From a virus (taxonomy: Duplodnaviria; Heunggongvirae; Uroviricota; Caudoviricetes): a stretch of DNA of 10,561 nt. Made by a program: the position numbers and the translations under genes. Below the pieces are notes generated by a model. The model saw only the letters and a list, made by a program, of their open reading frames with translations, ran no database searches and was not told the DNA's origin. Positions within the stretch are counted from its first letter, which is position 1, and each line of letters opens with the position of its first letter. The stretch is taken from IMG/VR virus record IMGVR_UViG_2663763339_000007; one strand, 5' to 3'. Of the stretch, positions 10,376-10,561 are shown piece after piece.

Positions 10376-10561
10376 ATGCTGCCGCAGCATAGCGATATTG
10401 AAATAGCCTGGTATGCTTCAATACAGCAGGAGCCGAATAGCTGGAAGACCGTCACCACACAGTTCTACATCCAGGAATTCAGTGAGTATATTGCGCCACT
10501 GCAGGATGCTGTAGATCTGGAAATCGCAACGGAGGAAGAAAGATCGTTGCTGGAAGCCTGA
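10376..10561 (+). CDS. Small ORF with a Tfa C-terminal-like domain and an unrelated N-terminus; ends in TGA at the window edge (possible truncated or remnant tfa-like gene)
   Basis: ATG 10376 preceded by AAGGGG (10366-10371). The C-terminal peptide [25 protein letters not shown] parallels Tfa [26 protein letters not shown]. Nucleotides 10481-10561 match tfa 7708-7790 at roughly 9 in 10 positions by eye. The TGA at 10559-10561 falls where tfa has TGG (Trp). Confidence 0.45.
   Translation: MLPQHSDIEIAWYASIQQEPNSWKTVTTQFYIQEFSEYIAPLQDAVDLEIATEEERSLLEA

Follow-up and report, generated by a model that had tools for sequence, protein, structure and literature searches.

A reading frame at the right end of a DLP12-type lambdoid element corresponds to E. 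coli tfaX, probably a decaying chimeric relic of a tail fibre assembly gene

Results

Gene content of the window

The stretch of DNA analysed here (10,561 nt in total, hereafter the window) carries, in order, J, lom, stf, a macro-domain ORF, tfa, pin, ydfK, ynaM, a methyltransferase gene and tfaX, with the four genes from pin to the methyltransferase gene on the minus strand. The window represents the right arm of a DLP12-type lambdoid element, much better preserved than its counterpart in E. coli K-12. In the K-12 DLP12 prophage only nohD-aaaD'-tfaD is found upstream, whereas the window has J, lom, stf, the macro-domain ORF, a full tfa and pin-ydfK-ynaM.

The tfa gene (7288–7863, plus strand) is an intact tail fibre assembly gene of 191 aa that lies downstream of stf and the macro-domain ORF, scores 150.5 bits against the Pfam family Caudo_TAP and is named 'tail fiber assembly protein' by PGAP. 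It is followed by pin (7961–8551, minus strand), which encodes a serine invertase with Pfam Resolvase and HTH_7 matches, and by a ydfK/ynaE-like cold-shock gene (8870–9103, minus strand) and ynaM/ynfT (9172–9285, minus strand), both named from the annotation of ST2350 and PhiR68_2. Next comes a gene for a ybcY-type class I SAM-dependent methyltransferase (9651–10319, minus strand; 222 aa; Pfam Methyltransf_12/23/25/11), a moron with tfa 3' ends on both sides. A promoter-like site for this gene (10348–10375, minus strand; TTAACC-16-TG-CATAAT), which is a consensus match only, lies in the 56-nt divergent spacer; promoter and terminator scans returned site counts no higher than in shuffled sequences, and such sites are used here descriptively. 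The last feature is the tfaX ORF (10376–10561, plus strand), a chimeric, pseudogene-like frame of 61 codons plus TGA that starts with ATG and whose stop codon forms the last three bases of the window.

Two additional observations were made upstream of tfa. In stf (3690–6380), the window does not contain about 310–336 nt at 4422–4447 that are found in otherwise 99–100% identical E. coli records (5252–5561 of record L001); there is a 26-nt overlap between the two pieces of the alignment, and the gap appears to be either a deletion that preserves the frame or a collapse of the assembly, in both cases between short direct repeats of an Ala/Ser-rich repeat region. The macro-domain ORF (6377–7279, plus strand; 300 aa; Pfam Macro, E = 5.9e-19) lies between stf and tfa and stops 8 nt ahead of tfa; an IS3 element breaks it in ST2350, and PhiR68_2 lacks it, with stf there directly followed by tfa.

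The terminal ORF corresponds to tfaX of E. coli K-12

Comparison of the translations showed that the product of the terminal ORF is identical to K-12 TfaX at 60 of 61 residues, the sole difference being S22 in the window and G22 in K-12. In K-12 MG1655, tfaX (b0563, ylcE; 582,875–583,060) is annotated within DLP12, a cryptic prophage, with the ybcY methyltransferase pseudogene on one side and appY on the other, and the length of 61 aa, the N-terminal leader, the TGA and the neighbours ybcY, appY and ompT are all as in the window. The gene order ybcY-tfaX-appY-ompT is common to K-12, ST2350 and PhiR68_2, and the latter two are 100% identical to the end of the window. The ORF thus agrees with E. 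coli TfaX (b0563) in synteny and in near-identity over its whole length of 61 residues, leader and premature stop (TGA) included. In the protein collection, the exact 61-aa product of the window and the K-12 allele (UniProt TFAX_ECOLI) each occur on at least 1000 contigs. Furthermore, PGAP classes the tfaX locus among tail fiber assembly pseudogenes and gives an internal stop and a missing N-terminus as its defects. Judged from sequence and gene order, the ORF at the window end is therefore the known E. coli DLP12-prophage gene tfaX, an already described and ordinary gene.

The tfa homology of tfaX extends past a lineage-specific nonsense codon

The repeat finder detected a direct repeat between 7696–7787 in the intact tfa and 10469–10560 in tfaX (both plus strand), with 85% identity over 92 nt and a spacing of 2773 nt. 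The tfa-derived segment of tfaX (10469–10561, plus strand) encodes part of the conserved C-terminal helical domain of Tfa. In BLASTP, tfa residues 132–166 aligned with ORF residues 27–61, with 24 of 35 positions identical (E = 5e-12), and the 15-residue stretch that the initial annotation had listed as common to both proteins was borne out. That annotation had also aligned 10481–10561 to tfa; the alignment stands, with the partner ending at 7788 and not 7790, and with 11 mismatches in 81 nt and not about nine. The tfaX ORF scored 29.9 bits against Caudo_TAP (cut-off 22.1; E = 7e-7), covering only profile positions 74–105 of 131. Because the Caudo_TAP gathering score is exceeded, the tfa similarity is real and is not a short low-complexity stretch.

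The full tfa homology of the tfaX segment, measured between L001 and the tfa of the window, is 154 nt at 82.5% identity, and the longest stretch without a mismatch in it measures 15 nt. It extends 62 nt beyond the window end, and the Tfa-like frame continues after the TGA for 75 nt (24 further codons) to the natural tfa stop position. The suggestion that the ORF is a truncated tfa remnant therefore held: a tfa 3' end is attached to a foreign N-terminus, and its frame runs on past the TGA, its sole lesion, to the normal stop.

The TGA (10559–10561, plus strand) replaces a conserved Trp of Tfa and stands exactly where tfa has TGG, as previously noted and confirmed by alignment. It is specific to the DLP12-type lineage: TGA occupies the Trp column in ST2350, K-12 and the window, and TGG is found at this column in the tfa of the window, K-12 tfaD, CFT073, the P2-like locus, the Logan contig, Turner and 2G7b. 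A sequencing variant, which had been considered for this codon, is excluded, since both TfaX alleles, including the exact 61-aa product, are each present on at least 1000 contigs.

The leader is unrelated to tfa and is joined to it at an abrupt boundary

The leader (10376–10468, plus strand; ~31 codons) is fused to the tfa fragment at a junction located at ~10460–10469. In agreement with the earlier statement that the upstream codons have no counterpart in tfa, the first ~31–35 codons match nothing in that gene; BLASTP revealed no similarity of the leader to tfa, and neither its sense nor its antisense frames matched Pfam. The boundary of homology is abrupt: the match of phage Ayreon to the leader ends at ~10459, and tfa homology begins at ~10469. 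Before the ATG, an SD-like AAGGGG is present at a distance of 4 nt; the SD, previously called good, is fair and not ideal.

Of 5,426 complete E. coli genomes, 3,489 carry the leader/tfa junction (window 10385–10475). Its place in the chromosome varies, the DLP12/argU side and the potB side being among the sites, and 14 phage records have it as well, including that of the lambdoid phage PhiR68_2, which we regard as viable. In addition, a diverged copy of the junction (87% DNA identity) occurs in a P2-like prophage adjoining ssrA/smpB, and another (85.5%) on a metagenomic contig (Logan) with a different fibre. All copies have the same junction, which indicates that it arose once and is old. From this we infer a single ancestral illegitimate join behind tfaX. 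The leader itself has a dN/dS of 0.2–0.8, a range that rests on 2–11 substitutions only.

A source of the leader was not found, and the protein search identified no full-length Tfa with this leader among 819 homologues. Three candidate origins were considered and rejected. The leader does not appear to belong to a divergent tfa allele, as only short chimeric ORFs, and no full-length Tfa, carry it. An origin from DinI was raised by a frameshifted DinI pseudogene that PGAP places, in a few genomes, on the strand opposite the leader, and it has no sequence support: the antisense translations of the leader gave no Pfam match at E ≤ 10 (DinI is PF06183), and tblastn and blastn with the intact prophage DinI of the P2-like locus (L010) yielded chance-level matches only (E about 0.7). 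Ayreon was considered as the state of the leader before the fusion; what follows the breakpoint in this phage occurs nowhere else in 50,697 phage records and its methyltransferase gene is deleted, and Ayreon more likely represents another derived state.

The methyltransferase cassette is the unit flanked by tfa sequences

The arrangement tfa(3')-methyltransferase-'tfa occurs without pin in K-12 DLP12 (tfaD-ybcY-tfaX), CFT073, strain 361, 2G7b and the P2-like prophage. The view that the direct repeats are scars of recombination is retained in this form; in all lineages examined they flank the ybcY methyltransferase cassette and not, as had been proposed, the block containing the recombinase gene. 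The methyltransferase gene of the window is 98.8% identical to that of the P2-like prophage by ssrA/smpB (L010, 5276–5944), with 8 of 669 nt different, whereas the adjoining leader and tfa fragment are only 87% identical to the window and the flanks overall about 83–87%. This finding suggests that the methyltransferase moron may have been exchanged recently between siphovirus- and myovirus-type prophages. Moreover, the full tfa and the mini-tfa of the same P2-like locus (5056–5201 and 6100–6247) have in common a tract of ~74 nt that is private to them and differs at only 2 positions, a pattern that indicates gene conversion between the direct repeats.

Further tfa fragments are present at the left flank in CFT073, strain 361, 2G7b and Ayreon. 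They resemble tfaX in being 3'-terminal, are 100–120 nt long, and lie beside the methyltransferase cassette or after S74-type fibres; they differ from tfaX in that their breakpoints are at reference positions 189 and 208, not 151, and in having no ATG-initiated leader. As a separate observation, the fibre in Ayreon (L007, 4956–5354) and in L005 (364–3297) ends in an S74 peptidase (intramolecular chaperone) domain and is followed by a tfa 3' fragment of ~120 nt. This tfa fragment behind S74-type fibres is another module-joint vestige.

tfaX shows missing domains and independent lesions

The N-terminal fibre-binding domain of Tfa (191 aa in full) is absent from the tfaX ORF, in which the corresponding place is taken by the leader of ~31–35 residues without tfa or Pfam similarity. 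Through the tfa alignment, the tfaX segment maps to the C-terminal region 113–174 of TfaMu (PDB 5YVQ_B). In Tfa proteins, the C-terminal segment is a conserved helical trimerisation domain and a variable N-terminal beta-sandwich binds the fibre (PMC9608196). The tfaX ORF does not hold a complete C-terminal domain in one frame, as the TGA at the Trp leaves about 26 residues of it, and it has a divergent methyltransferase gene upstream and appY downstream, with no cognate fibre gene adjoining. Without the N-terminal domain, with ~26 residues of the C-terminal domain and without a cognate fibre gene, TfaX cannot act as a tail-fibre chaperone. Compared with lambda-type Tfa (Caudo_TAP, PF02413; Mu U, PDB 5YVQ), the 3' segment of tfaX is 82–90% identical in DNA to the region coding for the C-terminal domain, whereas the N-terminal domain, half of the C-terminal domain and the fibre neighbour are missing and the frame is interrupted by TGA.

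Lesions were surveyed in nine aligned lineages of leader/tfa copies. The DLP12-type copy has the TGA, that of 2G7b a 7-nt deletion, and that of strain 361 a 1-nt deletion and a TAG; in addition, the copies of O157, Turner and 2G7b are truncated at the 3' side through a different junction. The dN/dS of the tfa part among close relatives was 0.35–0.94, and against the window allele it was very low (0.05–0.11, with dS 0.65–1.2), estimates that rest on very few substitutions. The low values against the window allele would fit exchange with functional tfa alleles and not selection on the fragment. Taken together, we consider it highly probable (roughly 0.88) that tfaX is a decaying, non-functional chimeric relic of an old illegitimate join at the right end of a DLP12-type element.

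The strongest, though still improbable, alternative is that TfaX, or its 86–89-aa TGG form, is a functional small protein made of a stand-alone Tfa C-terminal helical domain, which might, for example, block fibre trimerisation of superinfecting phages or modulate the resident fibre. Uninterrupted TGG ORFs of 86–89 codons are present in CFT073, the P2-like prophage and the Logan contig (77–97% identity), and the TGG versions of diverged lineages (77–83% amino-acid identity) are free of stops and frameshifts. The SD-like motif agrees with translation of such a product, and in K-12 genomic SELEX placed an RpoD holoenzyme peak together with H-NS in the ybcY/tfaX spacer (PMC3946193), upstream of tfaX. 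Moreover, tfaX appeared in a biofilm macroarray (PMC3646849) and among the hits of a kanamycin-survival gene screen (PMC12924614). None of these data, neither the SELEX peak nor the screens nor the uninterrupted ORFs, demonstrates a function of tfaX. Against a function stand the independent inactivating lesions in at least three lineages and the 3' truncations in three, the relaxed constraint among close relatives, the loss of all but ~26 residues of the domain and the pseudogene label of PGAP; the very low dN/dS against the window allele is accounted for by exchange with functional tfa alleles. It is equally improbable that the stand-alone C-terminal domain (86–89 aa) has been kept as a dominant-negative factor against the fibre trimerisation of competing phages, or that its DNA, together with the upstream tfa 3' end, has been kept as homology arms for hopping of ybcY between lambdoid and P2-like elements.

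The conserved sequence coincides with coding sequence rather than with an RNA gene

The Rfam scan matched a single family, IS009 (RF02111, a candidate sRNA), which coincides with tfa coding sequence, and the conserved sequence could accordingly be read as a non-coding RNA and not as protein-coding debris. The tfa 3' end of the window (7631–7829, plus strand) indeed matches IS009 at 218.5 bits. The tfaX copy, however, reached 108.9–110 bits, below the gathering score of 117, and elsewhere the family also falls on the coding 3' ends of tfa genes at 218–228 bits; in L002 it maps to 5857–6055 and 6899–7102. In addition, substitutions between alleles are overwhelmingly synonymous (dS 0.6–1.2 vs. 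dN 0.04–0.09), as expected for coding constraint on the parent gene. The IS009 family thus looks like conserved coding sequence, and the RNA reading is very improbable.

The pin block is a separate module

The presence of a Pin-type serine invertase gene between the repeats raises the question of whether the two tfa copies are what is left of an invertible fibre segment operated by Pin, as in Mu G, P1 C or e14 P, or of a Pin-mediated insertion. The pin-ydfK-ynaM block (7961–9285, minus strand) does lie between the repeats. However, the tfa copies are direct and not inverted, tfa-methyltransferase-'tfa exists without pin, and the pin block exists without tfa-methyltransferase-'tfa, being found without the methyltransferase gene in Rac and in the phages Tritos, mEp460 and PhiR42_1. 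On this distribution, pin-ydfK-ynaM (in the window, the stretch 7864–9660) is a separable module of Rac/Qin type, and because the pin block and the methyltransferase cassette each occur without the other, the recombinase did not create the repeat arrangement. Furthermore, the repeat finder detected no bracketing inverted repeats around the tfa copies in the window. A search for the Pin crossover core AAACC-NN-GGTTT gave one near-match, inside the methyltransferase gene and at chance level, and none at the repeat ends, and no inverted relatives with 26-bp pix-like sites at the repeat ends were seen. An invertible segment of the Mu-G/e14-P type is thereby excluded, and a Pin-based origin of the two copies is in general scarcely credible.

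Between the two modules lies a hairpin followed by a T-run (9608–9660, no strand assigned; folding energy −20.1 kcal/mol, z = −3.3), which is common to phages with the pin block and phages with the methyltransferase cassette. Pin-block phages match the window up to ~9617–9660 and methyltransferase-cassette phages from ~9610, an overlap of ~50 nt. The hairpin is likely the homologous joint between the pin and methyltransferase modules.

The sequence beyond the window contains no second fibre module

Many complete E. coli chromosomes match the last 962 nt of the window at 100% identity, as does phage PhiR68_2, in which the identity spans the tfaX junction. The proposal that the fragment begins a second tail-fibre/chaperone module continuing past the window, for which the extension of tfa homology over the window edge could be cited, is refuted by these records: the frame lasts 75 nt to the normal tfa stop and is followed by ~550 nt of AT-rich spacer and then by appY, ompT and envY, with no fibre gene downstream of tfaX in ST2350 or PhiR68_2, so that this reading has practically no probability left.

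In the PhiR68_2 record (L006, PV340576), appY and ompT lie inside the phage genome (12860–14812); the record was deposited as complete, with E. coli ECOR13 as the listed host. As PhiR68_2 carries appY and ompT, DLP12-type elements with these host-fitness genes appear to be still active phages.

Discussion

In the mosaic genomes of lambdoid phages, joints between modules can hold vestigial gene fragments that were generated by illegitimate recombination and then spread by homologous exchange, and morons are acquired at such places. The tfaX locus shares with these vestiges the abrupt homology boundary, the fragment of a conserved gene beside a moron that has a promoter and a terminator of its own, and a cassette that is found in unrelated phage backbones. 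It differs from them in nothing essential and is an instance of the known pattern.

As a relic, tfaX would have originated in an illegitimate (non-homologous) join of two phage genomes, which placed the last ~170 nt of tfa beside an unrelated ~90 nt, next to the ybcY moron. This join would by chance have produced an ATG-initiated ORF, and in the DLP12 lineage a change from TGG to TGA would then have shortened it to 61 codons. The role of the tfaX DNA would since have been passive, that of a patch of homology to resident tfa genes allowing gene conversion and module exchange; the repeats may in this way have helped to move the methyltransferase cassette.

The correct label for the ORF is a tfaX relic, that is, a tfa pseudogene fragment, and neither a second chaperone nor a new gene. 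Its importance beyond correct annotation is small. tfaX is nevertheless a clean small case of conserved tfa 3' sequence persisting at mosaic joints, and its locus shows a ybcY moron that is common to siphovirus- and myovirus-type prophages.
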